Assembly: GCA_031291875.1 (NCBI GenBank)
Contig: JARLIE010000112.1
Coordinates: 114-64,113, forward strand
DNA: 64,000 bases
DNA from: Minisyncoccota bacterium
Lineage (GTDB): Bacteria; Patescibacteriota; Minisyncoccia; Phycocordibacterales; UBA2100
Reading direction: 5' to 3'
The position numbers and the translations under genes were made by a program. The first letter of the stretch is position 1. Every line of letters begins with the position of its first letter. The notes below the pieces were generated by a model. The model did no database searches, was not told the DNA's origin, and saw nothing but the letters and a program-made list of their open reading frames with translations. This document shows positions 10,501 through 64,000 of the stretch, one piece after another.

Positions 10501-11225
10501 TCGTACTCTTCCTTCACACGTTTTACGAACGCGGTAAGGTCGATTTTCTTCAAAATTTCATAGAGCGCTTCAGCGCCGATCGCGGCGCGGAACATCGCGC
10601 CGTATTTGACTGCGAACAAGTGGTAGGCGGCTTCATCGAGAACGATACCGATCTGGATTGAATCGATTTCTTTCTTCGCCTTGGTGGCCATGTCCTTGAG
10701 GCGCGTCTTTTCGTCGGCGTTGGAGGCAGCCTTCGTTTTGGTCGCGAGCTCCTGCTCGAGATCCTTCAAAAGGCGGGCGCGCTCGTCTTCGTCGATCGAG
10801 GTGACGATGTAGCCAGCGAAGTACACGACTTTTTCAACTTCGGCAGCGGAGAGGCCGAGCATCAACGCGATGCGCGACGGGATGCCGCGGAGGAACCAGA
10901 TGTGTGCAACGGGGGTCGCAAGGTCGATGTGACCCATGCGCTCGCGGCGCACGATGGCGCGGGTGATCTCGACACCACACTTCTCACAGACGATGCCGCG
11001 GAAACGGATGCCTCGATATTTGCCACAGTAACATTCGTAGTCTTTTTCAGGACCGAACACACGCTCGTCGAAGAGGCCGTTCTTTTCCGGTCGCTGAGTG
11101 CGGTAGGTGATGGTTTCAGGTTTGGTGATTTCACCGTAGGACCAATCGAGAATTCGCTCGGGAGAAGCCAGACGCATCGCGACTGCTTCGAAATCCTGCG
11201 GGATGTTGTCTTTTTTCTTTTGCAT
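7524..11225 (-). CDS. rpoC: DNA-directed RNA polymerase subunit beta' (RpoC)
   Basis: The N-terminal zinc-binding region, [12 protein letters not shown] catalytic motif and trigger-loop regions are conserved over 1233 aa. Confidence 0.97.
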
Positions 11226-11233
11226 ATGCGTGA

Positions 11234-14410: not shown

Positions 14411-14562
14411 AGCTTTTTATGTGTAACGAAACGAGCAAGGCCTGCCCTTGCAGCGTTCCCCATATTAAATTGAGCTTCTAAAAAAGTGACCCTCTCAAAC
14501 ACTTCCTTTACTCAAAAGCGGCGTCCGCAACTCAATCTTGGGCCCCGAGCAAATATGTCGCG

Positions 14563-14591
14563 AGTATAAGGGTGATTTATCGCTTCGTCAA
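14563..14591 (-). promoter_or_regulatory. Putative sigma-70 promoter of rpoBC (TTGACG-17-TATACT) with a ~150-nt 5' UTR
   Basis: Near-consensus hexamers with 17-nt spacing on the minus strand, directly downstream of the terminator of the preceding small gene. Confidence 0.5.
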
Positions 14592-14593
14592 GC

Positions 14594-14620
14594 AAAAGGC
14601 CCCGCATTTGCAGGGCCTTT
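14594..14620 (-). terminator. Rho-independent terminator (GGCCCcgcatttgcaGGGCC plus TTTTGCTTG on the minus strand)
   Basis: GC stem-loop followed by a T-tract in the minus orientation. It ends the 14655..14978 gene before the rpoB promoter. Confidence 0.6.
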
Positions 14621-14654
14621 CGTTAACCGCATTAAAAAGATCGCCGCAGTCGCC

Positions 14655-14978
14655 TTAGTCTTCGTCAGTCAGCTCGAACGGGTGCTGCTTCATGCGCTTC
14701 CAGAGCGCCTGTCGGGCACGTTCTTGTCGGCAGTGCCGAATGAGCTGCTCGCCGATGCAGTGCGGAACACTGACAGCGCGGGCCGGACGAAAATCGTCGA
14801 AAAGACCTTCCGATAGCACCATTGCCCTGCCGCGGGGCCGGCGATCGAAATTGATCGAAGCGTCCGAATTCGGACTGCGAGCCTTGGGAGTGCCGCTGTA
14901 CGCTGCATTCACCAAAGCATCGACGGCCGGTTGGGTCCGCTTCCTATCGACGAGCATTTTCGTCTGCATTCCAGTCAT
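14655..14978 (-). CDS. Hypothetical small protein (107 aa), own SD/promoter/terminator
   Basis: SD AAAGGAGAAACGC-ATG. Upstream promoter-like TTGTCA-17-TACCAT; downstream terminator. No recognisable domain; contains HCIGEQLIRHC and an acidic C-terminus. Confidence 0.45.
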   Translation of the reverse strand: MTGMQTKMLVDRKRTQPAVDALVNAAYSGTPKARSPNSDASINFDRRPRGRAMVLSEGLFDDFRPARAVSVPHCIGEQLIRHCRQERARQALWKRMKQHPFELTDED

Positions 14979-15070
14979 GCGCGTTTCTCCTTTTTCTACG
15001 CATGGTCGGTTCAGTACGACCGCAGTGGATGGTACACCCAGCCGCTGTATTTGACAATATAAAAAAGAAT

Positions 15071-15110
15071 GGCGGGCGAACCACAGAGGTTCGCCCGCCT
15101 TACATTGTAC
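15071..15110 (-). terminator. Rho-independent terminator after the 15140..15400 gene (GGCGGGCGAACCnnnnGGTTCGCCCGCC plus ATTCTTTTTTAT)
   Basis: A 12-bp perfect stem followed by a T-run on the minus strand. Confidence 0.65.
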
Positions 15111-15139
15111 CCATGAGCGTTTCCCGGATCACTGCTTGC

Positions 15140-15400
15140 TTAAATGTAAGTCAGCGGTTTGCCATCTGCTCGACGAACTTCGAGCCGACCTCCTTCTTCC
15201 ACGACGATTGCCGGGACGGAAATCCGGTCGCCAAAATCGTACGGTTTGTGCTTCTTCGATTGTCTCGTTTGCGTTTGTGGCGCCGGAACGGGAGCCACTG
15301 GTGCGGTCGAAGGCCGTCCGGACGCCGGATACGACTGCGGACGTCGCTGCGCTTGCAGTAAGGTTGGTTGGCCGAAGAAGCCTCGCGGGTTCCTGTTCAT
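15140..15400 (-). CDS. Hypothetical small protein (86 aa, Pro/Gln-rich N-terminus, beta-rich C-terminus)
   Basis: SD CAGGAG 7 nt before the ATG. A promoter TTGAAA-17-TATTGT overlapped by a perfect 14-bp palindrome lies upstream, and a strong terminator downstream. Confidence 0.5.
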   Translation of the reverse strand: MNRNPRGFFGQPTLLQAQRRPQSYPASGRPSTAPVAPVPAPQTQTRQSKKHKPYDFGDRISVPAIVVEEGGRLEVRRADGKPLTYI

Positions 15401-28446: not shown

Positions 28447-29943
28447 TTAGACTCGAGCGATAACGATGCGCGGCGCGCCGCCATCGGTTACAACCTTCAT
28501 CGAGTCGCTGGTCGGGCGGGTGTGCGCGAAACCCGGGAGCGAATCTATGGTCGCTGTCTGCACCGGAGCCGGTTTGGCTGCGACGGTGCTCGCGACGGAA
28601 GTCTCGATCTTGTGTTCGACGACCGGAGCCGCTGCAACCACATGCTTTTCGACAGTCGTCTTGCGAGCGACCAGGGCGAATTTGCGAGCAGGAATCATCG
28701 AGCCCGCGAAAGCCGCCATACCTCCCTTGTAATACACGAGCAGGTAGCCTGCCGAGAAGGCGAAGGCAACGAGCATCGTCCAGTACATCGCGTCACCTGT
28801 CGTTCCGAAGTCGAAACCGGTGTACGGGATCTGCGAGAGCGTTACGGACGGAGTCTGCGGGTAGTAAGAGCCGACGTTCACGTACGTGTTGCACGTAGCC
28901 GTCTGACCGTTGTACCCGTAGACCGTGAGCACGTAGTTCATCGAGCCGTACGGGCGCACACTGAGGCTTCCGTTCGGAGCGACGTTGCCGTAGCTCGAGA
29001 GCGTTGCCGAAGTCGCGCCGTAGCTCTGCCAGGTAAGGTAGGTGTACTGACCGCTTTGGATCGAGTTCGGCGAAGCCGTGATGGTGCAGGAAACGTTCTG
29101 GTAGTTGTAGTTGGTCGGGAACGTGTACTGAACCGGGTACGTGATCGGTGTTTGGGAGACCGGAACGACCGTCGTGACTGTGTTGCCGCTATTGCTGACG
29201 TTGGTAACCGTATTGCAGCTGTAGTTGGTGCAGGTGTTGTTGGTGACGATGTTTGGCTGAGGCTGAACGACCGGCGTAATGATCTGCTGTTGCTGACGCT
29301 GCTGCTGGTACGCGATCGGAATGTTTTGGACGATCGGCGCCGACGGGATGTAGGTCGATCCACCGCCGTACGAGTAACCGCCGGTTGAATAGCCGCCGCT
29401 CGAGAAGCCGTAGCTTGCAGGCGCGGAGATTACTGCTGGGGTCGAATAGCTGGAGGTGGTGTAGCCGGATTCAGTCGCGGTCGTCGGAAATTCCGAGTAC
29501 GTTACGCCGCTTTCGGTGACGCAGCTGGAGCAGTCCGTCGTTGGAAACTCGCTGTATGTCGTGTTCGGAAATTCGCTGTAGGAGCTCGGGAACTCGCTGT
29601 AAGTGGAACAGTCGGTAGAACAACCCGACGGGAAATCACTGTAGGTGCTTCCGCTGTCGTAGCCCATATTGTTCGAACTTCCGCTGTCGTACCCCATGTT
29701 GTACGAGCTGCCGGTTGAGTCATAGCCCACATTGTTCGAGCTGCCGCTTGAGTCGTAGCCCATGTTGTATGAGCCGCTGCCGGAGTCGTAGCCCATATCG
29801 TACGAACCGCCGCTTGAGTCGTAGCCCATGTCTTGTGCATGCGCGAACACGACCGGAATGGCGATCGCGAAGAAACCAATCGCGAGCGTGAACAGTTTCG
29901 AATTTTTGGTCAAGATACTCATAAGTTTTGTAGTGTTTTCCAC
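28447..29943 (-). CDS. Secreted/surface-anchored repetitive protein (498 aa): signal peptide, MGYDSxGSSxN tandem repeats, YSEFP repeats, S/T/Y/Q-rich region, beta-rich domain, C-terminal TM segment
   Basis: Signal peptide MSILTKNSKLFTLAIGFFAIAIPVVFAHAQ (start may be ATG 29922). Seven tandem ~11-aa repeats (DNA period ~33 bp at ~29630-29840) and five xYSEFP repeats. A late hydrophobic helix WTMLVAFAFSAGYLLVYY is preceded by IPYTG. Confidence 0.6.
   Translation of the reverse strand: MENTTKLMSILTKNSKLFTLAIGFFAIAIPVVFAHAQDMGYDSSGGSYDMGYDSGSGSYNMGYDSSGSSNNVGYDSTGSSYNMGYDSGSSNNMGYDSGSTYSDFPSGCSTDCSTYSEFPSSYSEFPNTTYSEFPTTDCSSCVTESGVTYSEFPTTATESGYTTSSYSTPAVISAPASYGFSSGGYSTGGYSYGGGSTYIPSAPIVQNIPIAYQQQRQQQQIITPVVQPQPNIVTNNTCTNYSCNTVTNVSNSGNTVTTVVPVSQTPITYPVQYTFPTNYNYQNVSCTITASPNSIQSGQYTYLTWQSYGATSATLSSYGNVAPNGSLSVRPYGSMNYVLTVYGYNGQTATCNTYVNVGSYYPQTPSVTLSQIPYTGFDFGTTGDAMYWTMLVAFAFSAGYLLVYYKGGMAAFAGSMIPARKFALVARKTTVEKHVVAAAPVVEHKIETSVASTVAAKPAPVQTATIDSLPGFAHTRPTSDSMKVVTDGGAPRIVIARV
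29630..29840 (-). repeat. Coding tandem repeat (~33-bp period, 7 copies) encoding MGYDS[SG]GSS[YN]N
   Basis: Seen directly in the DNA: gtagcccat[ag]ttgt[at]cga[ga]c[ct][gt]ccg... units. The copies are diverged at the DNA level. Confidence 0.7.
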
Positions 29944-29974
29944 TTACTAAAGGTCCCGATAAAATTACTAATGA

Positions 29975-30015
29975 CCCGTCTATTATATATGAAGTAAAGC
30001 CCCCTGTCAAGTGTC
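29975..30015 (-). terminator. Hairpin terminator GCCCCCTGTCaagtgtcctcGACAGGGGGC downstream of the 30043 gene
   Basis: A 10-bp perfect stem followed by TTTACTTCAT on the minus strand. Confidence 0.5.
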
Positions 30016-30042
30016 CTCGACAGGGGGCCTATTTGGTCGCTT

Positions 30043-30576
30043 TCAACGGAGTTTGCGTTCGGCGTTGAGTCGCTCGCAGTCGTTCAGCCGCGCCTTCTTG
30101 TCGAAGAATGCGGGGTCGAGCTTCTGAAGATCGACGTGATCCGGCAGTCCATCGGCCCAGTCCCCTTTGTAGACGACTGCGTCGGCAACGTTTCCGTTCG
30201 CGTCGTTGACGCAGCGGCCGTTGCTCGCACTGTCGTTCTTCAGGGTCGGCGGCAGATTGATCACCGCACCGTCGGCGCCGTACGTGATGACGACACCGAC
30301 ACCATTGGGTGTCTCATGCACATCCACGCCGGGATTGCAGGCCTTGATCGCCTGGTCATCGCCGAGATGGAGCGTGATCATGAAGACATTCTTCTCCGGC
30401 GTGACGTCCGGGCGCGTGAACTTCACCGGCTGACAGCCGACTTGATTCACGGCCGGAGCGGCTTGCTGAGCCGGCGGCATCACGACATCCGGCGTTGCGG
30501 GCGCCGACTGGCCATAGGCAGCGGCACCGAACACGGAAGCGAAGATGGTAGCGACGAAAAGAGCGGATTTGGACAT
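30043..30576 (-). CDS. Secreted hypothetical protein (177 aa) with a signal peptide
   Basis: SD GAAGGAGA. Signal peptide MSKSALFVATIFASVFGAAAYGQ. Its own promoter-like TTGACA is upstream. No known domain. Confidence 0.5.
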   Translation of the reverse strand: MSKSALFVATIFASVFGAAAYGQSAPATPDVVMPPAQQAAPAVNQVGCQPVKFTRPDVTPEKNVFMITLHLGDDQAIKACNPGVDVHETPNGVGVVITYGADGAVINLPPTLKNDSASNGRCVNDANGNVADAVVYKGDWADGLPDHVDLQKLDPAFFDKKARLNDCERLNAERKLR

Positions 30577-30629
30577 TGCTGTCTCCTTCGGTTGAATCTG
30601 AAGGAATGGTATCACATATATTTATATTG

Positions 30630-30670
30630 TCAAGTGCATGAAAAAAGCGGGCAAAGAATGCCCGCTTTTA
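30630..30670. terminator. Bidirectional terminator AAAAAA-GCGGGCAaagaaTGCCCGC-TTTTAGCTTTT
   Basis: A 7-bp stem flanked by A and T runs; ends the 30687..31238 gene. Confidence 0.65.
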
Positions 30671-30686
30671 GCTTTTGCGCGAAAGA

Positions 30687-31238
30687 TCAGCGATACCCGG
30701 CACATGCGCTGCGACCGGGAAATTCCTTGGACGGCACCAAGCTGCCTCCTCGGGCCGTGCATTCCTCAGGATTGCGCGGAGCTCCGGGAACGTACCCTGG
30801 CCCTGCTACAGCGACGTGAACGCCGCCACCGTAGTACCCGGTGCTTGCCGAAGGACAAGGTTGCACGTTGGGAATGTTTTGTCCTGTCGGACAACACACC
30901 GGCAGCGATGGCCTCACGACGATGGGCGGCGCGGGGATCCGATGGATCACCGGCTGCTCGACGACGTAAATGTCCTTGCGGACCGTCACTGTTTCCGGCG
31001 GCGGAGGCGTCACCTCCACCGGCTTTTGCGGTGCGCAGCACGGCACCTTAACCCGGTGCCTGAAATGCCGATACACCGGTACGCGGACAAGTCTCTCCTC
31101 GTACCCGACGACCCGTTTGGAGGTCACCGTACGTTCACAGCATTCCGAGGTATATCCCGCTTCGCCGGCGCGAGCCGACGAGACGAAAGACGTGAGGCCC
31201 GCACACAGGAGGGCCGCGCACAAAATCACGATTCTCAT
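30687..31238 (-). CDS. Secreted Cys-containing protein (183 aa) with a conserved ~42-aa C-terminal domain shared with 31416..31853
   Basis: SD AAGGAG. Signal peptide MRIVILCAALLCAGLTSFVSSARA. C-terminal VAVAGPGYVPGAPRNPEECTARGGSLVPSKEFPGRSACAGYR; the paralog ends VAVATPGYVPGAPRNPSECVARGGAVVPSRMYPGRSACAGFQ. Confidence 0.55.
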   Translation of the reverse strand: MRIVILCAALLCAGLTSFVSSARAGEAGYTSECCERTVTSKRVVGYEERLVRVPVYRHFRHRVKVPCCAPQKPVEVTPPPPETVTVRKDIYVVEQPVIHRIPAPPIVVRPSLPVCCPTGQNIPNVQPCPSASTGYYGGGVHVAVAGPGYVPGAPRNPEECTARGGSLVPSKEFPGRSACAGYR

Positions 31239-31415
31239 CGTATGCTCCTTTGGTCGCCCGATCGCGGGCTACTGTAAAGATCGATGTCCTCCCCTTTTGG
31301 TTTGGACGGCTTGCCTTCTTCCGAAGACTGTTCCGGGAACGGAGTGTTCCATGCCCGAAATGATGTTCGTAAGAGTTTTCGGAAGCGGCGGAGTATTCCA
31401 CCGCTTCCGAAATAA

Positions 31416-31853
31416 TCATTGGAATCCCGCACACGCACTGCGGCCGGGATACATTCTTGAAGGAACTACCGCCCCACCGCGAGCAACGCATTCGCTGGGA
31501 TTTCGCGGAGCGCCAGGCACATATCCAGGAGTAGCGACTGCCACCCTCGGACCGCCCCCGTTGAAGCTCGGACCGCCGCTGTTTGCGACAGCTCCGCCCC
31601 CCGCGTCACTGCCGAGGCGTTGTGCAGCTCGGCATCCGACCCCAGTTGTGTCGCATAGAAGCGCCACGGTAGTCGGAAGGATGTAATTGGTAAGCGCCAT
31701 GAGAATACCGATTGCGACGCCGACCCAGATGAGTGCATTTCTTGCTCCTGCAGGCATTACAGGGTTCTCCTTTTTTCCATGATCGTCGCCTTTCTTTTTG
31801 TCGTCGGGTTTCTTTTGATCGTGACCGTGTCCATGATCGTCGCTCATTTTCAC
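31416..31853 (-). CDS. Single-pass membrane protein (145 aa): His-rich cytoplasmic N-terminus (DDHGHGHD), one TM helix, and an extracellular Cys C-terminal domain paralogous to 30687..31238
   Basis: Upstream promoter-like TTGACT-16-TACAAT and a terminator before it. The conserved C-terminal domain is described above. Confidence 0.55.
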   Translation of the reverse strand: MKMSDDHGHGHDQKKPDDKKKGDDHGKKENPVMPAGARNALIWVGVAIGILMALTNYILPTTVALLCDTTGVGCRAAQRLGSDAGGGAVANSGGPSFNGGGPRVAVATPGYVPGAPRNPSECVARGGAVVPSRMYPGRSACAGFQ

Positions 31854-31869
31854 TCCGTGGAGGCAAAAT

Positions 31870-31915
31870 TAGACTGTCGGTATTGTATCAATAAAATACA
31901 AAAAGTCAAGGCGGG
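31870..31915 (-). terminator. Terminator AGGCGGGaccggaaacggcCCCGCCT plus TGACTTTTTGTATTTTATTG
   Basis: A 7-bp stem and T-rich tract on the minus strand, between the two His-rich membrane protein genes. Confidence 0.5.
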
Positions 31916-31941
31916 GCCGTTTCCGGTCCCGCCTGGATTGT

Positions 31942-32373
31942 TCAATGGTGATCATGCGCTTCGTGCCCACCTCCCCCTGCATCGATCTTGCCGCGTATAT
32001 GCAGCAAGGCCATGAGGAGCGTGATGTCGATGATCGACGTCACCAGGTTGGCAACGATGATGATCCACGCATCCCGCACCGGCGGCCATTTGACCAAGAT
32101 GAAGATGCCGAGAAACACCACCGTGACCGCAAGTGGAATCCACGAAGTGATCACGTCGATGTCGAACTCGGGATCGGTCATCCTCGGCGCGAGGGCAACC
32201 GGCGGGATCTGCGTGATGATGTACATCATCACGAGGAAGATCCACCAACTGTCCGCGATGTGCTCGAAAGCCCACAGCGGAAGGTAACCGAGCAGAAGTC
32301 CGCCGAGGGTTGCCGCCGTCATGGCCGCGAATGCGCCGGAGGCGCAGGCCGAAAACAAAGCCAAAATACCCAT
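31942..32373 (-). CDS. Small 4-TM membrane protein (143 aa) ending in a His-rich tail GGGGHEAHDHH (track ORF extended to 32646)
   Basis: SD AAGGA 9 nt before the ATG at 32373. Four predicted TM helices. Confidence 0.45.
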   Translation of the reverse strand: MGILALFSACASGAFAAMTAATLGGLLLGYLPLWAFEHIADSWWIFLVMMYIITQIPPVALAPRMTDPEFDIDVITSWIPLAVTVVFLGIFILVKWPPVRDAWIIIVANLVTSIIDITLLMALLHIRGKIDAGGGGHEAHDHH

Positions 32374-32666
32374 ATAGTTGATCCTTGTTGTTGTGTCCGT
32401 CGCAGCAGGTATGACCCGAGTAGGCACCGTGATCTCCGGCGCCGCGATCGGCCAAGGCGGTCGAAATACGAGCGCCGTCGAGCTATCGTCCGGCATGAGT
32501 GCCCTCCATTGATTTCGAAGAACAGTGCTCTCGCGTAGTGCGAAAAGCTTCATAGAAATTATATCATCGTATGTAGTATTGTCAAATTTGACCCGTGGCG
32601 ATACCCCACGTATTGTCCAAGCAGCTTGCGAATATTTCGCAAACAAGATCTTTACAGGAGAGTGAA

Positions 32667-32897
32667 ATGGCCGATGCTCCCGCCACTCCCAATGTCGACC
32701 TGGATGCCGGGAAGCTCCTTGAAACGTTGCAAAAGCGGCTTCCGGAGGTTCTCGTGCTTCACCAAAAGGTCCGGATCATTTTCGAGTACGTGACACCGCA
32801 CCCGGTGACTGGCGAAGATGTCCCTATCACGCCTCAGGTCGTCGAGCAAAGGCCCGGCGGCCAAACGCAAACGACGGCCGAGGAAAAACCCGGCTAA
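32667..32897 (+). CDS. Small hypothetical protein (76 aa)
   Basis: SD AGGAGAG 6 nt before the ATG. A bidirectional terminator (AGGCGTCGCaaaGCGACGCCT flanked by A and T runs) lies at ~32915-32948. Confidence 0.4.
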   Translation: MADAPATPNVDLDAGKLLETLQKRLPEVLVLHQKVRIIFEYVTPHPVTGEDVPITPQVVEQRPGGQTQTTAEEKPG

Positions 32898-32961
32898 TAA
32901 ATCGGGACTCAAAACAAAAGGCGTCGCAAAGCGACGCCTTTTTCATTTGGTTTGAGAACAG

Positions 32962-33408
32962 TTACTGCGGACTGATGTTGATCGGAGCCGCGCCGATCGT
33001 GCGCGTGTTGATGACCATTTCGATCAGCAGTCCGATCAAGAACGATCCGACAAGCATGAGCGTAAACGCCGTGATCGCTTCCGCTCGGATGCCGAAGATC
33101 AGCAGCCGGACCCTGTCGTACCACACGAAGCCGATCTGTACGATAAGACATACGGCGACGCCGTTATCGGCAAGCACCGCAAGCCAGCGATCCCGGCGAA
33201 CGACGGTGAGCGCCGATGTCAGCATCTCGAGCAACACATAGATGGTACAGATGTAGGCCATGACGTACCCGTCCGGAGCGCTGCGAGTCAGCCAGAACGT
33301 GTAGTAAATCCAGATGCCGAGCACTACTCCCTGCAGGCAACTGATCGCATTGGCGCCTAGATGCACCGCATGGTGGTGAACAATGAACGAGGCTAGACGG
33401 CCGAACAT
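32962..33408 (-). CDS. Small 4-TM membrane protein (148 aa) with an N-terminal HHHAVH cluster (track ORF extended to 33489)
   Basis: SD GGGAG 9 nt before the ATG at 33408. Four TM helices. Weak topological resemblance to the 31942..32373 protein. Confidence 0.4.
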   Translation of the reverse strand: MFGRLASFIVHHHAVHLGANAISCLQGVVLGIWIYYTFWLTRSAPDGYVMAYICTIYVLLEMLTSALTVVRRDRWLAVLADNGVAVCLIVQIGFVWYDRVRLLIFGIRAEAITAFTLMLVGSFLIGLLIEMVINTRTIGAAPINISPQ

Positions 33409-33529
33409 GGAGAATCTCCCGTTGGATTGAACTGCGCAAAACCTGTACTGAAACGGCTTTGAAGTCAAGCAAAAAAGAAGAAGGCGCACCAGGGTGCGCC
33501 TTCAAAAGTTTGAACAAAGAACAGAATGA

Positions 33530-33949
33530 TCAGTTTCCGCGCGCGCCGTTACGGGGGCACGGACCGGAGTCGCAGTAGAAGATCCCGGTCGAGAGATCGC
33601 GGTGGCCAGTCCAGGGCGTCCTCTGCGGCGCGAATTGCTGGTGGCCGAACATGCCGATGATGCGGTATGCCATGCCGATTCCCGCTGGGACGGGAGTTCC
33701 ACCGCCCACGATCACGCCTTGCTGCTGATTCGGATAGTAGATCTGACCGTTGGGCAGGATCCCGTAGCCGCCCGGCGAAACGGGGCTGATCGTATGACCC
33801 GGATTGCTCCGATGCCACGTCTGCATCCAGCCGTCGTAGTCGGATCCGCACAGACCGCCGACATGAATGTTGCACGGCGGACCAGCGAATGCGGCCGACG
33901 AGAACATGAGAGCGACAGTCGTGATCAATGAGAAAACGATCTTACGCAT
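33530..33949 (-). CDS. Small secreted Gly/Pro-rich, Cys-containing protein (139 aa)
   Basis: Signal peptide MRKIVFSLITTVALMFSSAAFA. C-terminal CDSGPCPRNGARGN is vaguely reminiscent of the PRN..ARGG domain of the 30687/31416 paralogs. Confidence 0.45.
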   Translation of the reverse strand: MRKIVFSLITTVALMFSSAAFAGPPCNIHVGGLCGSDYDGWMQTWHRSNPGHTISPVSPGGYGILPNGQIYYPNQQQGVIVGGGTPVPAGIGMAYRIIGMFGHQQFAPQRTPWTGHRDLSTGIFYCDSGPCPRNGARGN

Positions 33950-34029
33950 TGAGTAGTCCTCCTTTGGAGTCCCGGAATGGAACCTTTATCTGTTTTAATT
34001 ATACACTTTAAAAGTGTATAAGTCAAGTG

Positions 34030-34584
34030 CTAGTACTTCCCTATTTTAAGCGGTGTACCGATCGCCACCGGTGTTCCAATCGAGACCGGAGCGCCGATGG
34101 AGACGGCGCTACCAATCGTGGCTGGCTGCGCGATTTGCACGGCATGAGCTATCTGAACCGGATGCGCGATTTGTGTTGGGGTTGCGATGGTTACGGCGTG
34201 CGCGATCGAGACTGCCGATGCGATAGTAACGGGATGCGCGATTGTGACGGGCGATGCGATTTGTACTGGCGAGGCTATCTGCACAGGTGAAGCAATGGTG
34301 ACAGCGTGAGCGATTTGCACAGCACTGCCGATGGGTACTGCTGACGCGATCTGTACCGCGGAGGCGATAGGCACCGCGCTTCCTATGGCTGCCGCACTTG
34401 CGATAGAGGTTGCGCCGGCGATCGGAACAGCGCTTGCGATTGAGGCGGAGCTAGCAAAAGAAACAGCGCTTGCAATCGGCGCAGCGGAAGCGATCGAGCA
34501 GCCGCAGTCCTGCGCGTACGTTGCGACAGCGCTAAACGGAAGCGCGAGCAACAGCCCCGCAGTTATTTTGGCTCGTATGGTCAT
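34030..34584 (-). CDS. Secreted protein composed of 26 contiguous hexapeptide repeats [I-A/G-x-A/P-V/T-x] (left-handed beta-helix-like), 184 aa
   Basis: Signal peptide MTIRAKITAGLLLALPFSAVATYAQD is followed by IASAAP IASAVS ... IGTPLK. The repeats fit the LbH consensus [LIV]-[GAED]-x2-[STAV]-x. DNA period is 18 bp (~34038-34506). The gene starts 5 nt downstream of the sortase stop. Confidence 0.6.
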   Translation of the reverse strand: MTIRAKITAGLLLALPFSAVATYAQDCGCSIASAAPIASAVSFASSASIASAVPIAGATSIASAAAIGSAVPIASAVQIASAVPIGSAVQIAHAVTIASPVQIASPVQIASPVTIAHPVTIASAVSIAHAVTIATPTQIAHPVQIAHAVQIAQPATIGSAVSIGAPVSIGTPVAIGTPLKIGKY

Positions 34585-34588
34585 ATGA

Positions 34589-35254
34589 TTATTGAGAAAC
34601 TACGCCGACGTAATGCGCGGTGAGAACGAAACGCGCACTGGTACCGGTGAGCGTATCGCAGGTTACGAGCGTGAGTTTTTGGCCCTGCGAAGGGTCGAGG
34701 CTGATGGTCGTGCCGTCGCCTGCATCCGCCTTCACAACGGAATCGACGCTGTAGAGGTACGCTTTGCCGTCGGCGCCATCGAGCTCAATCGAATCGCCGG
34801 GATTGAGGTTCGGGATCTGATTGAACGCTTGGAACATTTTATTGGTCACGATCGGCAGGTGCGAAGAGTGCGCGAAAATCAGCACATTGCCTTTGACGCC
34901 AAGCTGCGCTGAGCTGACGTAGCGGGCCGGTCCCTTATTGAGTAGCGCGTCGAGCGCGTCGACATCGGTAGTCGCAGGATTTTGCACCGGCAAGTCGATC
35001 CCGACCGAAGGAATTTTGATTTCGGTAGGTAAAACACCTTGTGTTGCTGTAGCAGCCGGGGCGTTATCTTCGACACCCAGCTGCGGCAACGAAGAGATGG
35101 CCACCTGATCGCACGTGCCATCGATTTGGCACGGAACGAAGCCGACGGAGTCGGCAGCACTAAGTGAAAGCGCAAAAACAACGACAGTTGTCGCGAGAAA
35201 GACCCCGAACGGAGGACTTTTTTTTGCTGGCTTTGCTGAATTGGCGGCGCTCAT
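34589..35254 (-). CDS. Sortase-family transpeptidase
   Basis: N-terminal TM anchor, IPSVGIDLPV (beta6/7), NVLIFAHSSH (catalytic His region), LTLVTCDT (TLxTC catalytic Cys) and RFVLTA (Arg). Confidence 0.85.
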   Translation of the reverse strand: MSAANSAKPAKKSPPFGVFLATTVVVFALSLSAADSVGFVPCQIDGTCDQVAISSLPQLGVEDNAPAATATQGVLPTEIKIPSVGIDLPVQNPATTDVDALDALLNKGPARYVSSAQLGVKGNVLIFAHSSHLPIVTNKMFQAFNQIPNLNPGDSIELDGADGKAYLYSVDSVVKADAGDGTTISLDPSQGQKLTLVTCDTLTGTSARFVLTAHYVGVVSQ

Positions 35255-57457: not shown

Positions 57458-60400
57458 TTACGGAGTTGTTGAGGTCGCACTGGTGCTTGTTGAGCTTGAG
57501 GTAGATGTTGAAGCTGTAGTCACTGGAGTGCTGGTGCTCGTTGAAGATGGCGTCGAGGTACTGCTTGAACTGGTCGAGGTCGCGCTCGTCGAAGTGCTCG
57601 TGGAACTCGTCGAGGTCGCAGCGTTCGGATCGACAACGTTCACAATGCGGGTCGCCGTGCCAGTGAGGCCGTTTTGGTCGGTCGCACTATAGACGATGGT
57701 GTGTTGGCCCGCGACCGAGGTGTCGATCGTGATTTGCGACATCGGAGTCGAGGTGGCGCCATCTACCGATGCAGTGATGCCGAGGTTCAAGTCCCCCGTC
57801 GGACCGGTGATCGTTGCGCCAAGGTCGTTGTACGTTGCACCAACATTCACGCTCGCGGGATTGTTGCCGTTCACCTGCAAGACCGGCGAAGTCGAGACAC
57901 TCGAGCTCGTGCTGCTCGAGGTCGACGAACTTGTGGTCGAACCAGTGGAGCTGCCGCTACCTGCGCCCGAGAGCAGCTGATCGAGCTGCGCCTTGGTTAC
58001 GCACGTCTGTGCGCCGGTCGAGTCGGAGATGCAGAGCTTCTGGGTGTCGACCTCGTTGGCATGGACAACCTTGGCGTAGAAGTCCTGGATCGTGTTGCCC
58101 GCATCCGCAAACCAGCTTGCGAGCGCCGATTTGACCGCCGAGAGGAAGCCTTGATCGAGAACCGGCGTCGTGCTCGTCGAGGAGGTCGCGGAGAACGAGT
58201 ACGGGAAGGCGGTAATGCAAGAGCCGTTGAGACAGAGCTTCGCGTTGGTCGTCGTCGCGGCCGTCGAGGTGCCGATGCCGAGGTCGCCGAACTGATCGAT
58301 GACGACGGCTGGCGTCGAAGTCCCCTCGTAGATCGAGATAATGCTCGGCATGGTCGTCGAGGCGTACGTCGCGTTGAAGACACTATTGATGTCTTGGATC
58401 GACTTCGTGAGGTACGGCGTGAAGCCGGCGTAGTTGAGGAGCAAGGTTCCGTTGTCGGACGACGTGACGAGATCCGGCAAGACCTGCTGTACCTGCTGCG
58501 CGATGAAACCGGAGTGCTGCGGCGTGCCGGTCGTTTCTGATTTCCAGTTGTAGTAGACCGGGTTGAGTTCCAAAATGTCGGTGAGCGCGGAAGAGGTCGA
58601 GATCGAATTGATGTTCTTCTTGAGCGTGATGTCGGAAGAACAGTTCACGCTGCCAGCAGTCGGATTGATCGTACATTCGCCGTTGGCGTTCTCGAATCCG
58701 GCGACGACACCGGAGACATTCGAGCTTCCGACTGTGAGAAGGTACGGCGCCGAGCTCGTGCCGATGCTCAAGCTGTTATTGAAGCTTCCAACGCCGTTGG
58801 AGTTGATTGAGAAGGCTGAGACGGACGAGGTTGCGGAGAAGGTCGAAGTTGCAACGTAGAGGTTGTTGCCGACAGAGCGGAAGGTCCAGGCGTTATCGGC
58901 GGCCGAGCCGTCGGCGAGCGCAAGTTGCGGGCCAGTGCTAGAAGCGATTTCAAGCGAGACTGAAGGAGTAGACGTACCGATGCCAACGTATGCGTTGGTG
59001 CTGCTACCAATCGAGTAGAGCGTGAGCGCCGTGCCGTAGGCCCCGGTCGTGCTGTTGTAAGCATTGAAGTTGAGGTTGGTGTTCAAGGTGGTCCCGACCG
59101 GAATCATTTCAATGTTCCAGTTGGTAGTAGTCGAGATGCTGCCGGTCCATGCGTTGCCGGAGAAACGCAAGCGCGGGGAGATTTGAACTGGTGCGCCAGC
59201 AGTCGCACCGGTGTTGTTCTGTAAAATCAAACCATCACTTGAGGTCGTGACAATGTTTGCGCGCGTAAGTGTTTCAATGTTGTTAACTGCAAGTGTTGAG
59301 TTGGCGGTAAACGCACCGAGCGCCAAAACAGGCGTGCCGAAGTGGGTAGTTGAAGTAAGACCAGTCGTTTGTCCGGTGGTCTGAGCAGTGGAATACGGCA
59401 TCGCATAGCCACCTGGGTTCAATTGCGCGCCCCAGGCGACGATCGTTTGCTTGTCGTTGCCGATCGTGACTAACGCTTTGGTATCAGAGCTCGAAGGGTT
59501 GTTTTGAATAACATCGAATCGTCTCCATTGCGACGTAATCGTCACAACATTGGCGGTACCGGTCGTGGTCGCCGTGCCAGTGCCCCAATCGACTTCAAGC
59601 GAAGTAGTTGCGGTGCCGCTCGCCGCGCGCAAGTAGACACTGAATGTCCAGCTGCCTGTAGTGCCGGCCGCGTTTACGAATTGGACAAGCTTTGATCCGC
59701 TTGCGGTGCCGGCGAGCTGCTGCGCCGTCGCCCCGCCACGAGGGTCGGTTTGCGAAGCAGTGATCGTTTCACTCGTTGCCGTCCACGTCGGACTAGAGTT
59801 GAAGGTTTCGGTTTGGAGCAGGTAGTTTTGGTACAGACCGACGTTTAGGAACGGACTGTCGATGTTGTAGAGCTCGGCGACGCTCGTGGTGCCGTTGAGT
59901 GCATCGATCGGCGCGATTGGGTCGGTGCGACCAAAACCGACATTACCTGCTTGCGAGATATGGAAGACGGAACCGCCGGAAGAGCTGGCCACATCGAGAA
60001 GCTGCGTTGCGGTCGAGAGACCCTGGATCGCGAACGAGGCCGCGTCCGTACTGGTGCCGACGGAGACGACGCCGTTTTGGTTGACCCCTCCGACAAAGAA
60101 CGAAGGTGTCGAACTGCCGGTGTTGGAAACAATGAATGCGGTCGGCAAGTTACCAATTTCTACGGCAAGTTTTGCGTACGAGGTAGTGGTGCCAATGCCA
60201 ACCAGGCCGACCGAAGAGTTTGTCGTCGAAATATTGAAGATCGGAATATTCGAGCTTGAGGTCGCGATTGAGAAAGCGTTTTTGGAGTTGTTCGGGACGA
60301 TAATGTCTGACGACGTTCCGAAGGTAAACGTGCCGTTGTCCTGGATAGTAAAGAGTGGGTTGTTGGAGGCGTCGGCTGCGGCAAAAGCATAGCCGGTGCC

Positions 60401-63400
60401 CAACGTGTCGGGGCCGCTGACCGAGAGCTTGGCCCACGGGCTTGTGGTGCCGACACCGATCGTTCCGGCGTTGGAAACAAAGAGTGTCGAGGTGCCGCTA
60501 ACGATTGCGCCGTTTGCCGCGTAGAACGCGAATTGTCCTTGCGTACCCGCGTTCACGCTCGGCGCGCCGCCGCCGGAAATACAGACGCCGTTATACGCAT
60601 AACAGCCGCTCGTGATATTGATGCCGCCGGTCGTCGAGAAGGTCGAGGTTGCGGTCGAGAAGTTGATGCCGTTGGTGTTGCCGATCGAGAAGAGTGAACC
60701 CGGGGTCGTCGTGCCGATACCGATGCTACCGGTTGAAAGGAAGCTGCCGCTGCCATTGAGACCAGTACCGTAAATAATATTACCGATATCGAGCTGGTTG
60801 GAGGCGGTCGTAGATGCAGCAGTAAGGCTGTTGCCGATCAAAATATTGTTAGTGCCGGTGGTGATACTGGGGTCGCTAAAATCATTTGAACCAAGGACGA
60901 TGTTGTGATTGCCGGTTGTAATCGTGCTTCCCGCAGCATTACCGATCAAGATGTTGTAATCTGAACCAGTCTGAGCATCAATGCCTGCATTGACGCCGAT
61001 GTATACGCCGCCCTGGTTGGAATAATTACCGGTGCCCGCGCCAGCACCGGCACCGATTGCGACCGTATTGGTCGCGGATTGATTATAGAAGAGTGCCGAA
61101 CTGCCGACTGCGACATTGGAATTGCCCGTAGTGTTGTTGGACAATGCACTGTTGCCGAGAGCGGCGTTGTTACCACCAGTGGTATTGAAATACATCGAAG
61201 ACACGCCGATCGCTTCGTTATTGGAACCCGTCGTGTTGTTGAACAATGAATATGCCCCGAAGATTGAGTTGCTACTGCCAGTCGTGTTATTGAATCCTGA
61301 TTGGAGACCGAAGAACGAGTTGGTATTTCCGATAGTGTCGTTATATCCCGATTCATAGCCAACGGTCGTGTTGTTGCTACCAGCTTCATCGTTAACATGA
61401 AGGAGTGACAAGAAACCGATTGCAGTGTTTCCCGTCGAAGAGGTGGCACTCTGGAGCGCGCCGTATCCAAAGAGTGTGTTCCCGGTTTGCGTTGTTGTGG
61501 CGAGTAGGCTTTGGCCGGCCGTGAGCCCAGCGATCGTTATACCGTTCGTGCTCGACGCGGTGAGGAGTGTAGTCCCATTCAATTGGTAGGTTCCGTTTGA
61601 TTGCACGTTGACCGTATTGAAGGCACCGGCACCGGCGTCGGTGAAGCTGCCGACGACCGTCGACGACGCTTGCGAAACGAAGCCTTGGCCGAACGTTTGG
61701 AGCGCGCTCCAGTTGGTCGCGATGGCGTTGAGACAATTTCCGCCAATTGCATAGCAGCCGTTTGCGAGGTTGAATCCGCCGCTCGTGTAGAACGTCGAGG
61801 TTGCCGTCGTGAAGTTGGCGACGTTATTGATCGCGAAGATAGAGCCAGGAGTCGTCGTGCCGATACCAATGTTGCCTGTTGAAAGAATGTTACCAACGCC
61901 TGTATTACCGGTGCCGAAGAGTATATTTTGGATATTGAGCTGACCGTTCGCCGTCGCTGATGGGAGTGCCAAGTTGGAGCCGATCAAAATGTTCTGTGAA
62001 CCGGTCGTAAGGTTGTTGATACCCGGCGTTGATGTTGCTGTGCCAATGATGACGTTGTTACTGCCGGAGGTGATACCGAAGCCCGCTTGGTAGCCGAGCA
62101 GTGTATTGAAGTCGGAACCGTTTCCGAATGAGAGGCCCGCCTGATACCCAACGACCGTGCCACCTTGGTTCGAGAATTGAGAAATGCCGGAAGCTGCGCC
62201 GAAACCGATTGCCACCGTATTCGTCGCGGAAACGTTGCTGTAGCCGGCGCTCAGACCGATACCGACGTTTTGGCTTCCGGTAGTGTTGAGCATGAATGTT
62301 TGCGAGCCGACACCAAGGTTATTACTACCAGTCGTGTTGTTGTAAAACGCATTCGTGCCGAAAGCAGAGTTATTGGAACCTTGATTGTATTTCAACGAAC
62401 CATCGCCCAAAGATGTGTTCGACGTAGTCCATGAACCGCCCAATGATTGAGAATCAGTTCCGATCGCAACATTGTAGGTACCAGTCGCGTTGTCGAGGAG
62501 CGCGTTACTACCGGCTGCAATGTTATATGAACCGGTCGTGTTGTTGATAAGCGCGAGCGAGCCAAGCGCAGTATTCTCGATGCCGCTCGTGTTCAGATTG
62601 AGCGCCCAAGCGCCGAGCGCGGTGTTGTGATCACCGGAAGAGTCGGCAGCAATTGCACCGAAACCAACCGCCGTGTTGTAACCAGTATGAAAGACGGTCG
62701 AACTGCCTTGCAATGCGGCAGTACCAACCGCGGTGTCATACAGGGATGTTGTCGCATATTGGAGTGCGTTGTAACCGATAGCAGTGGCAAAGTTGATAGC
62801 CGAGGTCAGATTTTGTCCTGCATTCAACCCGACCTCTGTTGAACCATTGGTCGTTGACGCATTGAGCAACAAGCTGCCGCCAAGCTGGTAGCCGCCGGTC
62901 GTCGGCGATGTGTTGATGAAGCCAGTCGTCGTGAGATTGCCGCCGATCGTCGCCGCACCGGAAGTCTGCAGGGTTCCGGCTGCGGTGTTGAGAACGCCGA
63001 GACCCAAACCTCCCGTAAAGTAGCCGTTGCCGATAACCGAAAGATTCGTTACCGGAGACGAGGTGCCAATACCGAGGTTGCCTGCGGCGGTAAGGCGCAT
63101 GCGCTCAAGCGTGCTGTCTGTGGTGCCCGGAAGACCGCTGAGTGTGTAGAACGCGAGATCGGTATTTTGCGCGCGCCAGTAGTTGCCCGCGCCGCCACCT
63201 GCGTTGATCGCCAAGTTGACTGCGGCGATCTTCGCGCCGATCGTGTCGTTTTGCACGTCGCGGTAGCTGGAGAAAACTATTTGATCGATTGACGAGGTCG
63301 CATTGAGTGCAACGTTGGTCGGGCCAGGGTTGATTCCACCGATACGAAGCGAAGTGGTCGTCGCGGACGAGTTGTTGTCGAGCGTCGCGAGCTCGAATGG

Positions 63401-64000
63401 ATTACGCGGGTTGGTCGTCCCGAGGCCAAAGAAGCCGCTGCCTTGCTGGAGCACGAGCTGCGAGTTGCCGATAGTGAAGCCTTGTCCCGCGGCGATGGTT
63501 GAGGTTCCGCTTGTACCGGCCAAAGCGATTGTGCCTGCCGTTGTATTGAGAGCGCCAACACCGAGACCACCGGTCGCGTACGCATTACCAGCGACAGAAA
63601 GGTTTGTCGCAGGCGAGGTCGTACCGATGCCGAGGTTACCGTTAGCGTCGAGACGCATGTACTCGCTTTGGTTTTTTCCGAACGTGATTACATCCGAGCT
63701 CTGATTACCAAACTGGATGTACCCCATGTCGGTGTTGTCGACACGACGCTGGATGCGCCATGAAGTCGTCGTCCAGTCGGTGCCGCCGGCACTCGAGCGG
63801 ATCGCGGAGGTAAAGAGGCTATCCACATTGGCGTCTGTAACCATAAGACGAGAAAGCGTCGTTGTGGAATAGGCGGTAGTCGGAAGCGCACCACCACTTA
63901 CGAGGAACTTCGAACTCGGCGATCCGCTTTCGGAAGAAAGACCTACGAGAACCGAGCCGCCGTTCGTCGCGAGTGTGACGCCGTTTGCAAACGTTGAGGT
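57458..64000 (-). CDS. Giant secreted repeat protein (>2180 aa; 5' end beyond the window): tail-fibre-like GIGTTxP repeats, YadA-head-like NxAxG repeats, intramolecular chaperone/peptidase S74 domain, Big-like/S-T-rich C-terminal tail
   Basis: The minus-strand frame stays open past 63844 to the window end. Recurrent NLGIGTTSPxxxLSV modules. Long runs of ~14-aa N[TS]AxG / NNTTGxxN repeats. SSDITLKKNINSI...LNPVYYNWK matches the S74 intramolecular-chaperone Ser-Lys motif. C-terminal SSTSSS/TSTS low complexity. Confidence 0.8.
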   Translation of the reverse strand, partial: TSTFANGVTLATNGGSVLVGLSSESGSPSSKFLVSGGALPTTAYSTTTLSRLMVTDANVDSLFTSAIRSSAGGTDWTTTSWRIQRRVDNTDMGYIQFGNQSSDVITFGKNQSEYMRLDANGNLGIGTTSPATNLSVAGNAYATGGLGVGALNTTAGTIALAGTSGTSTIAAGQGFTIGNSQLVLQQGSGFFGLGTTNPRNPFELATLDNNSSATTTSLRIGGINPGPTNVALNATSSIDQIVFSSYRDVQNDTIGAKIAAVNLAINAGGGAGNYWRAQNTDLAFYTLSGLPGTTDSTLERMRLTAAGNLGIGTSSPVTNLSVIGNGYFTGGLGLGVLNTAAGTLQTSGAATIGGNLTTTGFINTSPTTGGYQLGGSLLLNASTTNGSTEVGLNAGQNLTSAINFATAIGYNALQYATTSLYDTAVGTAALQGSSTVFHTGYNTAVGFGAIAADSSGDHNTALGAWALNLNTSGIENTALGSLALINNTTGSYNIAAGSNALLDNATGTYNVAIGTDSQSLGGSWTTSNTSLGDGSLKYNQGSNNSAFGTNAFYNNTTGSNNLGVGSQTFMLNTTGSQNVGIGLSAGYSNVSATNTVAIGFGAASGISQFSNQGGTVVGYQAGLSFGNGSDFNTLLGYQAGFGITSGSNNVIIGTATSTPGINNLTTGSQNILIGSNLALPSATANGQLNIQNILFGTGNTGVGNILSTGNIGIGTTTPGSIFAINNVANFTTATSTFYTSGGFNLANGCYAIGGNCLNAIATNWSALQTFGQGFVSQASSTVVGSFTDAGAGAFNTVNVQSNGTYQLNGTTLLTASSTNGITIAGLTAGQSLLATTTQTGNTLFGYGALQSATSSTGNTAIGFLSLLHVNDEAGSNNTTVGYESGYNDTIGNTNSFFGLQSGFNNTTGSSNSIFGAYSLFNNTTGSNNEAIGVSSMYFNTTGGNNAALGNSALSNNTTGNSNVAVGSSALFYNQSATNTVAIGAGAGAGTGNYSNQGGVYIGVNAGIDAQTGSDYNILIGNAAGSTITTGNHNIVLGSNDFSDPSITTGTNNILIGNSLTAASTTASNQLDIGNIIYGTGLNGSGSFLSTGSIGIGTTTPGSLFSIGNTNGINFSTATSTFSTTGGINITSGCYAYNGVCISGGGAPSVNAGTQGQFAFYAANGAIVSGTSTLFVSNAGTIGVGTTSPWAKLSVSGPDTLGTGYAFAAADASNNPLFTIQDNGTFTFGTSSDIIVPNNSKNAFSIATSSSNIPIFNISTTNSSVGLVGIGTTTSYAKLAVEIGNLPTAFIVSNTGSSTPSFFVGGVNQNGVVSVGTSTDAASFAIQGLSTATQLLDVASSSGGSVFHISQAGNVGFGRTDPIAPIDALNGTTSVAELYNIDSPFLNVGLYQNYLLQTETFNSSPTWTATSETITASQTDPRGGATAQQLAGTASGSKLVQFVNAAGTTGSWTFSVYLRAASGTATTSLEVDWGTGTATTTGTANVVTITSQWRRFDVIQNNPSSSDTKALVTIGNDKQTIVAWGAQLNPGGYAMPYSTAQTTGQTTGLTSTTHFGTPVLALGAFTANSTLAVNNIETLTRANIVTTSSDGLILQNNTGATAGAPVQISPRLRFSGNAWTGSISTTTNWNIEMIPVGTTLNTNLNFNAYNSTTGAYGTALTLYSIGSSTNAYVGIGTSTPSVSLEIASSTGPQLALADGSAADNAWTFRSVGNNLYVATSTFSATSSVSAFSINSNGVGSFNNSLSIGTSSAPYLLTVGSSNVSGVVAGFENANGECTINPTAGSVNCSSDITLKKNINSISTSSALTDILELNPVYYNWKSETTGTPQHSGFIAQQVQQVLPDLVTSSDNGTLLLNYAGFTPYLTKSIQDINSVFNATYASTTMPSIISIYEGTSTPAVVIDQFGDLGIGTSTAATTTNAKLCLNGSCITAFPYSFSATSSTSTTPVLDQGFLSAVKSALASWFADAGNTIQDFYAKVVHANEVDTQKLCISDSTGAQTCVTKAQLDQLLSGAGSGSSTGSTTSSSTSSSTSSSVSTSPVLQVNGNNPASVNVGATYNDLGATITGPTGDLNLGITASVDGATSTPMSQITIDTSVAGQHTIVYSATDQNGLTGTATRIVNVVDPNAATSTSSTSTSTSATSTSSSSTSTPSSTSTSTPVTTASTSTSSSTSTSATSTTP

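Follow-up and report, generated by a model that had tools for sequence, protein, structure and literature searches.

The window analyzed in this work is a 64,000-nucleotide (nt) stretch of contig JARLIE010000112.1 (positions 114 to 64,113 of the forward strand) from assembly GCA_031291875.1 of a Minisyncoccota bacterium. Two neighboring genes in this window, designated here A (30687..31238) and B (31416..31853), encode proteins that end in the same short module with two Cys residues, and this module is a real, unannotated and rare family that is conserved at the protein level, extracytoplasmic and C-terminal. Under the explanation that we favor, and to which we assign a probability of roughly 0.4, the module would be a lineage-specific matching association tag that tethers a secreted protein to a membrane anchor. 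Both genes, and all other window features located by coordinates below, lie on the minus strand unless otherwise stated.

BLASTP aligned the two proteins over their C-termini only, with 35 of 49 residues identical (71%), 42 of 49 positive, no gaps and an E value of 4e-22, and their Smith-Waterman score of 201 compares with a maximum of 63 among 2,000 shuffles. These results confirm the central claim of a preliminary description of this DNA, that A and B share a C-terminal module. Equally in line with that description, the N-terminal parts of the proteins do not align and the DNA of the two modules is diverged, with an identity of ~61-63% (63% across the 36-codon core). Over the 49 aligned codons, the nucleotide differences at codon positions 1, 2 and 3 number 9, 12 and 37, respectively, and the Nei-Gojobori method gave a proportion of synonymous differences (pS) of 0.87, which is saturated, and a proportion of nonsynonymous differences (pN) of 0.22. 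The saturated pS, the low pN and the codon-position pattern indicate that the minus-strand frame is the selected frame and that the modules are not a recent DNA repeat. It follows that A and B have long been similar and that this similarity is preserved in their amino acid sequences, as read in the minus-strand frame. When the six-frame translation of the window was searched with a profile built from the two modules, only the copies in A and B were found (E values of 3e-33 and 5e-33), the next best match having an E value of 1.6. The small secreted protein encoded by 33530..33949, which had been described as faintly similar, was not among the matches of this search, and its local alignment scores of 21 and 18 do not exceed the shuffle means of 21.7 and 22.1.

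Apart from the module, the two proteins are built differently, and both architectures agree with what had been read from them previously. Gene A encodes a 183-aa protein (MDR3571179.1, locus tag P4L81_03195, annotated as 'hypothetical protein') and has a ribosome binding site, AAGGAG, 7 nt 5' of its ATG. Its product begins with a probable Sec-type signal peptide (MRIVILCAALLCAGLTSFVSSARA, followed by GE; 31167..31238) that was read from the sequence and contains an A-x-A cleavage motif, and the maximum Kyte-Doolittle 19-residue window of the protein, 2.23, is at residue 3. Three vicinal Cys pairs (ECCE, PCCAP and VCCP) mark the Pro/Arg/Val-rich region that comes next, and the protein closes with the core module, GYVPGAPRNPEECTARGGSLVPSKEFPGRSACAGYR-COOH (30690..30797), with similarity to B reaching upstream to 30836 (49 aa). 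Gene B encodes 145 aa when read from GTG at 31853; the more likely start is the ATG at 31847, which has GGAG 5 nt upstream, and the resulting 143-aa form is the one present in the protein collection (P0019). Protein B consists, in order, of a His/Lys/Asp-rich N-terminus (MSDDHGHGHDQKKPDDKKKGDDHGKKENPV; 31758..31847), a single hydrophobic transmembrane (TM) helix at aa 38-64 (ALIWVGVAIGILMALTNYILPTTVALL; 31656..31736), a juxtamembrane CDTTGVGC, a Gly-rich linker and the core module, GYVPGAPRNPSECVARGGAVVPSRMYPGRSACAGFQ-COOH (31419..31526), with similarity to A reaching upstream to 31565. The His-rich N-terminus is kept in the orthologs of B at two other loci, as MADAKGGGDHGHGGGG in L007 and MADAKSGGHGHGG in L009. 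The charged N-terminus of B, together with the secretion of the module of A, suggests an N-in/C-out topology.

Searches of A, B and their relatives against Pfam, NCBIfam, PHROGs and PADLOC gave no match, and PDB sequence searches with the module gave nothing significant, consistent with the earlier view that this is not a known domain. Exhaustive HMMER searches over 1.84 billion cluster representatives recovered, besides A and B, four remote relatives (P0020-P0023; E values of 2e-5 to 9e-4), all four of which carry the motif at the extreme C-terminus, one of them twice in tandem. The contigs of the relatives were then searched in all six frames with a seven-sequence profile, against which A and B score 60-62 bits, and further copies were found that had been overlooked or mis-framed by gene callers. 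The family consensus, GY[VI]xGAPxxPxEC-xxRGG-loop-GR[GS](A)C-xG[YF]x-COOH, spans ~36 residues and has 12 invariant columns, both Cys among them, and the 36-residue core reaches the stop codon in A, B and all relatives. More broadly, the family conforms to GY-x2-GAP-x3-[ED]C-x2-RGG-loop-G[RQ]-x(1-2)-C-x-G[YF]-x at the C-terminus, encoded by adjacent genes that include TM-anchored and secreted members. Loop length is 3-5 residues among the relatives and 10 residues in A and B, which have one additional residue before the second Cys. The two invariant Cys stand 11-18 residues apart near the C-terminus. In total, the carriers of the module represent six independent loci, most of them on short contigs, and the taxonomy of the Logan contigs was deduced from synteny and sortase similarity.

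Several members are missing from existing gene calls. At L001 156-428, on a Logan contig, B is replaced by an out-of-frame 90-aa call, while the A-type genes (defined below) at L008 7312-8064 and L007 10394-10795 were called in another frame and on the opposite strand, respectively, which implies that the family is under-represented in protein databases. Other searches yielded little. A word-index protein search with the two- and seven-sequence profiles came back empty and missed even A, a member of the collection; this index seems unsuited to short queries. No match was obtained in the first metagenome scan or in the scan of viral contigs. The sole match in the scan of GTDB species genomes, L003 from an Acidobacteria metagenome-assembled genome, was antisense to a 447-aa open reading frame (ORF) and had an E value of 0.82 with the better profile, and was discarded as spurious. 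In a second metagenome scan, L005 was rejected as a 'GYVPGAPRSP' match lacking the second half, and a real copy was detected at L004 289-381 (JGI Ga0187876_1019594), in which an in-frame TAA takes the place of the conserved Glu codon (GAPRNPA, stop, CVARGGIDTGQGCRGYR, stop). The L004 contig has 63% G+C and, by inspection of its ORF translations, HicA/HicB-, MoxR- and CoxM-like neighbors. This copy is probably a pseudogene or an assembly error in a genome from outside the candidate phyla radiation (CPR), and it hints at transfer beyond this group.

The proteins that carry the module can be assigned to types according to what precedes it. B-type proteins combine a His-rich N-terminus, a TM helix and the module (B itself, L007 9678-9989 and L009 2475-2765). 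S-type proteins (P0021 and P0023) are just 79-85 aa long, with a short conserved linker joining a TM helix to the module. In A-type proteins, the module follows a signal peptide and a Pro/Arg/Tyr/Gln-rich region that contains Cys pairs (A itself, L008 7481-7936 and L007 10397-10795, the last cut by the contig end), and L009 3160-3489 is homologous to the L007 A-type gene and is cut by the contig end before the module. B-, S- and A-type genes are consecutive in L007, and L009 has the B-type, the S-type and the cut A-type gene. L008 pairs a TM-type with an A-type gene, the window pairs B with A, and L006 encodes one TM protein with two tandem copies of the module. Thus, at adequately covered loci the module is always found on two to three adjacent genes or twice in one protein, and no set lacks either a membrane-anchored or a signal-peptide protein.

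Within each set, the copies of the module also resemble one another in their loops. A 7-residue insertion is common to the window pair, a 2-residue insertion to the L007 pair and the sequence TDLGRGC to the L009 paralogs, whereas the N-terminal parts of the module proteins, unlike the loops, are orthologous between genomes. In L007 (9678-10258) and L009 (2475-3015), 24-nt tracts over the Cys loop are identical between paralogs whose modules are otherwise diverged, which points to gene conversion in short patches. There is no identical 24-nt tract in the window pair, and this, in combination with its saturated synonymous sites, points to selection.

A and B belong to a surface-protein island (28447..35254) that is variable and lies between a conserved sortase gene (34589..35254) and the gene for ThrRS. 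When the sortase was used as an alternative starting point, 808 homologs were found at E < 1e-30. Four sister loci (L010, L012, L014 and L015) are fully syntenic with the window and encode sortases 76-83% identical to its own, and the module is absent from all four. The ends of the island are conserved in these loci, comprising the sortase, a hexapeptide-like repeat protein and an IPYTG repeat protein of 430-500 aa (the last lies beyond the contig end in L015), and the middle is mosaic. The last 30 residues of all island ORFs were then compared all-against-all within each locus. In three of the four sister loci (L010, L014 and L015), the equivalent secreted and anchored genes were found to carry other shared tails, for example DNVPSWLHVQRE and RRVYKTLGN. 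Three genes of L014 end in DN[AV]PSWLH[IV][QR]RE (11299-11874, 13540-14103 and 14117-14347), and they encode two signal-peptide proteins, one of which is A-like in being Arg/Pro-rich with a CNCDCCYPTG cluster, and a 76-aa TM protein. The equivalent triad of L015 ends in DNVPxxWxxV (12212-12694, 14354-14992 and 15002-15172) and includes a 57-aa anchor-only protein, and L010 has one secreted and one TM protein with the ending L[AV]R[RH]VYK[TH]LG (11269-11703 and 13369-13584). The shared-tail pairs are the top-scoring pairs within their own loci, and no more than 1 in 20,000 shuffles attained any of the observed scores.

These tails differ wholly from the module. The possibility that the DNVPSW tails are homologous to the module, or to the phage foldon considered below, was examined with hhalign, which found no relation. 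Among A-type proteins with different tails, BLAST aligns only the extreme N-termini, which are signal peptides, and a common composition and a CC[Y]PTG-like motif are visible by eye. In L015, the repeat-protein gene is immediately followed by an inserted rve-family integrase/transposase gene (11208-12077, minus strand), consistent with the island being a hot spot of rearrangement. Tail identity is thus common within a genome and replaced coordinately from one close relative to another, against a conserved background of sortase and flanking surface proteins, a pattern that suggests a general matching-tail principle in the island. The preliminary description had proposed a shuffled extracytoplasmic domain that might be a ligand, a receptor-binding module or a toxin/bacteriocin-like module. 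The shuffling part of this proposal is strengthened, since positionally equivalent genes in related genomes carry wholly different shared tails on what is a real C-terminal module; a ligand or receptor-binding role stays in contention; the toxin/bacteriocin part found no support, as leader, transporter, immunity and modification genes are all absent and the island is vertically inherited.

How might matching tails be used? In the explanation that we favor, copies of the module on the two to three proteins of one genome would bind one another, and this association would hold the Pro/Arg/Cys-rich secreted A-type protein on the membrane-anchored B-type protein, and on the S-type protein where present. 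In this Kaiserbacteria-like CPR bacterium, tethering would take place on the outside of the membrane, and the matched set would form part of the variable surface-protein island beside a housekeeping sortase. Physical association of the copies is what we infer from these patterns of sequence and gene order. The anchor-only S-type proteins, the constant mixture of anchored and secreted members, the tandem fusion and the homogenization of the loop within a genome all argue for an association tag, as do the coordinated swaps of tails in the absence of co-variation of the conserved island proteins. The closest functional analogy is to dockerin and cohesin, which are matched docking modules. Like these, the short terminal module occurs on otherwise unrelated proteins, and its specificity appears to be common within an organism and to differ between lineages. 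Unlike these, it has no sequence or repeat similarity to them, no separate cohesin-like receptor was identified, and the tags may bind each other.

A number of observations weigh against an association tag. The copy number is two in some loci and three in others, which points to no single stoichiometry; the structural model of the module is of low confidence; a model of the natural tandem pair gave no confident contact between the copies; and the pattern is drawn from only six independent module loci, mostly on short contigs. In addition, gene conversion alone could homogenize the paralogs of L007 and L009, and a shared tail would be equally expected if all members bind one co-varying third partner or host ligand.

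The models in question were produced with AlphaFold2. For the module, from a shallow seven-sequence alignment and with low confidence (predicted local distance difference test [pLDDT] of 63), the prediction comprises an extended GYVPGAPR, a short helix over PEECTA and a small hairpin with the second Cys on its second strand. The helix is consistent with our reading of an N-P-x-E capping box and a GG C-cap in the sequence, and both copies in the natural tandem protein were given the same secondary structure (pLDDT 51). A Foldseek search of the module model against the PDB found no match. The two invariant Cys most likely close the variable loop by a disulfide. Sortases and an MdbA-like extracytoplasmic disulfide oxidoreductase are both reported to be enriched in CPR bacteria (PMC6744442), and the enrichment of the oxidoreductase makes a loop-closing disulfide plausible. 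No MdbA- or VKOR-type gene was found within the window.

The module also has some likeness to the foldon of T4 fibritin (Pfam Fibritin_C), which is similarly very short (~27-30 residues) and extreme C-terminal. The first nine residues of the two nearly coincide, as GY[VI]PxAPR[ND], and YVRKDG of the foldon corresponds to CVARGG of the module, with a Val and a Gly-containing turn at the same spacing and a hairpin-like segment next. The gene triads of L007 and, for the other tail type, of L014 and L015 would suit a foldon-like trimer, and the window encodes, in addition, a 2128-aa surface protein with a phage tail-fiber chaperone domain. The foldon was the top PDB profile match at an E value of 1.2, which is not significant database-wide, and hhalign of the module with the foldon aligned 18 columns with a probability of 83% and a P value of 8e-6 in what was a single post-hoc comparison. 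A Pfam search with the module gave no foldon match at E values up to 10. Unlike the foldon, the module lacks a Trp-centered core, has few hydrophobic residues, contains two Cys and has a longer variable loop, and in the low-confidence AlphaFold2 model it forms the short PEECTA helix where the foldon has a strand. We regard the resemblance as a lead of low probability and not as membership. A bolder extension would see in the island an undescribed 'matching-tail' assembly code, in which lineage-specific, interchangeable C-terminal tags join secreted and anchored proteins and the Cys-loop module is a disulfide-stapled cellular relative of the foldon that drives hetero-trimerization of three chains; this, too, is speculative and in our estimation improbable.

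Among the other explanations, the one with the most in its favor, which we still consider rather unlikely, is that each copy of the module binds the same external target, such as a cell-wall polymer, a co-varying surface protein or a host-cell receptor. Several differently anchored proteins would then display the same binding knob, in the manner of the C-terminal disulfide loop of type IV pilins. An extracytoplasmic, terminal and compact module with a predicted disulfide-closed variable loop that differs by lineage would fit this role, as would the hypervariability of the surface island that encodes it, in a group of organisms whose members are believed to be host-attached (PMC6744442), and coordinated replacement of tails is also expected with a co-varying partner. 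However, the minimal S-type proteins (57-85 aa, anchor and tag) would put the knob almost on the membrane surface, and the tails of the sister loci are linear peptides of 12-15 residues that look more like docking motifs than like receptor-binding domains. Moreover, the conserved island proteins do not co-vary with tail type, which argues against the sortase and the repeat proteins as a common receptor. The likeness to type IV pilins extends to the D-region, given an N-terminal hydrophobic helix, a small extracellular part and the predicted variable disulfide-closed loop near the C-terminus. By inspection, however, the N-termini of B-, S- and T-type proteins lack the prepilin-peptidase motif (Gly-1, Phe+1, Glu+5), the A-type members have ordinary Sec signal peptides, and the island contains no pilus assembly genes. 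The recently described Pam pili of CPR bacteria are built from unrelated Ig-fold pilins, and a literature search found no description of the module, the island or the matched-set organization.

It is also conceivable, though doubtful, that the C-terminus is a recognition or sorting tag that is read by a sortase-like transpeptidase, a C-terminal processing protease or an assembly factor, and is perhaps removed or cross-linked. In favor of such a tag are the strictly C-terminal placement of the module, with its conserved final G-[YF]-x, the presence of a sortase gene in the island of the window and of L007, L008 and L009, and the use of different terminal peptides on equivalent genes by different lineages. 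The setting thus recalls that of sortase-dependent LPXTG proteins, particularly as another island protein (28447..29943) has an IPYTG motif and a TM helix. Yet neither the module nor the other tails have an LPXTG-like motif, a hydrophobic segment or a basic tail, and the sortase does not co-vary with the tail, being 76-83% identical between loci with different tails or none. The conserved IPYTG and TM helix make the large repeat protein the obvious sortase substrate instead, and neither a protease nor any other candidate enzyme varies together with tail type.

A redox or metal site, in which the Cys pair would act as a thiol redox or metal center together with the Cys pairs of A, the two-Cys juxtamembrane motif of B and the His-rich termini of B and of the neighboring four-TM protein, seems to us less credible still. 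The island is indeed rich in Cys and His, with DCGC in the repeat protein, CC pairs in A-type proteins, HGHGH in B-type N-termini and HEAHDHH at the end of ORF 31942..32646. The spacing of the invariant Cys, 11-18 residues, is nevertheless typical of a structural loop and not of a CxxC-type center, the sister lineages put Cys-free tails on equivalent genes, and the His-rich segments are predicted to be cytoplasmic, across the membrane from the module. Finally, that these small ORFs with a conserved two-Cys C-terminal peptide are precursors of bacteriocins, toxins or ribosomally synthesized and post-translationally modified peptides (RiPPs), with the C-terminus as the active core peptide, is highly improbable, given that the N-termini are Sec signals or permanent TM anchors and not leaders, that Pfam, NCBIfam and PADLOC scans of the neighbors found no modification enzyme, ABC exporter/transporter, immunity gene or defense-system match, that a conserved terminus and a variable N-terminus are the opposite of what RiPP families display, and that the genes lie beside a sortase in a vertically inherited chromosomal housekeeping neighborhood.

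Turning to the expression of A and B, a sigma-70-like promoter (TTGACT-16-TACAAT with TG; 31882..31909), identified by consensus match only, lies upstream of B. A promoter scan found no comparable site upstream of A, and B and A may therefore form one transcript. The 177-nt spacer between them (31239..31415) is strongly structured as RNA, with a minimum free energy of -72.7 kcal/mol (z of -5.7 against shuffles), and includes a perfect 16-bp hairpin without a U tail directly 3' of the B stop codon (31378..31411); this structure may serve as an attenuator, a processing site or a stabilizer within the B-A transcript. A hairpin and T run resembling an intrinsic terminator were read from the sequence 3' of A (AAAAGCGGGC-ATTCTTT-GCCCGCTTTTTT; 30641..30669). 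The preliminary description had also pointed out that plus-strand ORFs antisense to these genes (30136..30819 and 30970..31686) mirror the repeat. The mirror is present, but it is merely the reverse complement of a G+C-rich coding region, and these ORFs are a by-product, because the promoters, ribosome binding sites, terminator, codon-position pattern and homologs are all on the minus strand.

The remaining genes of the island encode further surface and membrane proteins, and six minus-strand genes of the island have their own strong sigma-70-like promoters (12 sites, compared with 3.8 expected). Directly after the sortase gene is the gene for the secreted hexapeptide-like repeat protein (34030..34584). 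This protein and its counterparts after the sortase in L007-L015 contain IAxxVx repeats, weak Hexapep/LbH matches and a [DE]C[GA]C motif just past the signal peptide, and they may form a left-handed beta-helix on the cell surface. The small secreted protein of 33530..33949 comes next, and two multi-TM proteins are encoded just before B in gene order (32962..33489 and 31942..~32500). A perfect TTGACA-16-TATAAT promoter with a TG extension (32558..32585) lies inside the second of these ORFs, annotated as 31942..32646 with a TTG start, implying that the real gene start is further downstream. The protein ends in GGGGHEAHDHH in the window (31945..31977), compared with DDHHPPAH in L007 (9094-9552), and the His-rich N-termini of B-type proteins contain DDHGHGHD, GGGDHGHGGGG or GGHGHGG; these recurrent His-rich termini may bind metal on the cytoplasmic side. 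A is followed in gene order by a secreted 190-aa protein (30043..30615), and last in the island comes the 498-aa repeat protein with IPYTG and a TM helix (28447..29943). Orthologs of the latter, of 430-500 aa, are present in L010 (15983-17281), L012 (15919-17223) and L014 (16757-18094), and the family has short Tyr/Ser/Asp-rich repeats and a poly-Gln stretch, followed by SQIPYTGFD[FL]G, the TM helix, KGG and a tail of ~80 residues. It is likely a sortase substrate with an unusually long tail after the TM helix.

The wider setting is that of a chromosomal contig from a Kaiserbacteria-like Paceibacterota metagenome-assembled genome, and the PheS of the window falls into a 90% cluster with Kaiserbacteria proteins. 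Housekeeping genes in the window encode RpoD, DnaG, RpoC, RpoB, SMC, RNase III, NusB, DnaE, ThrRS, GyrB, PheT, PheS, RF and S2, along with glycolytic and pentose-phosphate enzymes, and one tRNA gene was found with no other Rfam match. L007 is syntenic with the window over PheS, PheT, GyrB, a conserved divergent gene, the sortase, the secreted hexapeptide-like repeat protein, the two multi-TM proteins and the module genes, and in L008 and L009 the sortase and the repeat protein are upstream of the module genes. At the far end of the window, 57458..63844 encodes the 2128-aa protein, in which a Peptidase_S74 domain (aa 1737-1794) is accompanied by an Ig-like domain of the bacterial surface type. 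In endosialidase and phage tail-fiber proteins, Peptidase_S74 serves as the intramolecular chaperone, and the 2128-aa protein looks like a phage-fiber-like surface protein in a CPR chromosome.

CPR bacteria, or Patescibacteria, are thought to live attached to other microbes, and the assembly of their small, unannotated envelope proteins is almost uncharted. The present analysis turns two 'hypothetical proteins' into a testable unit, defined by a 36-residue motif and a rule (one anchored and one secreted protein per set), for which the natural swap variants in sister genomes predict specificity. If the resemblance to the foldon were true, it would link a classic phage trimerization device to cellular surface proteins. 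If the module and its counterparts do act as association tags, they would provide a handle for finding CPR surface complexes and a source of very small orthogonal oligomerization tags, and they would account for the retention of secreted proteins by a cell without an outer membrane.

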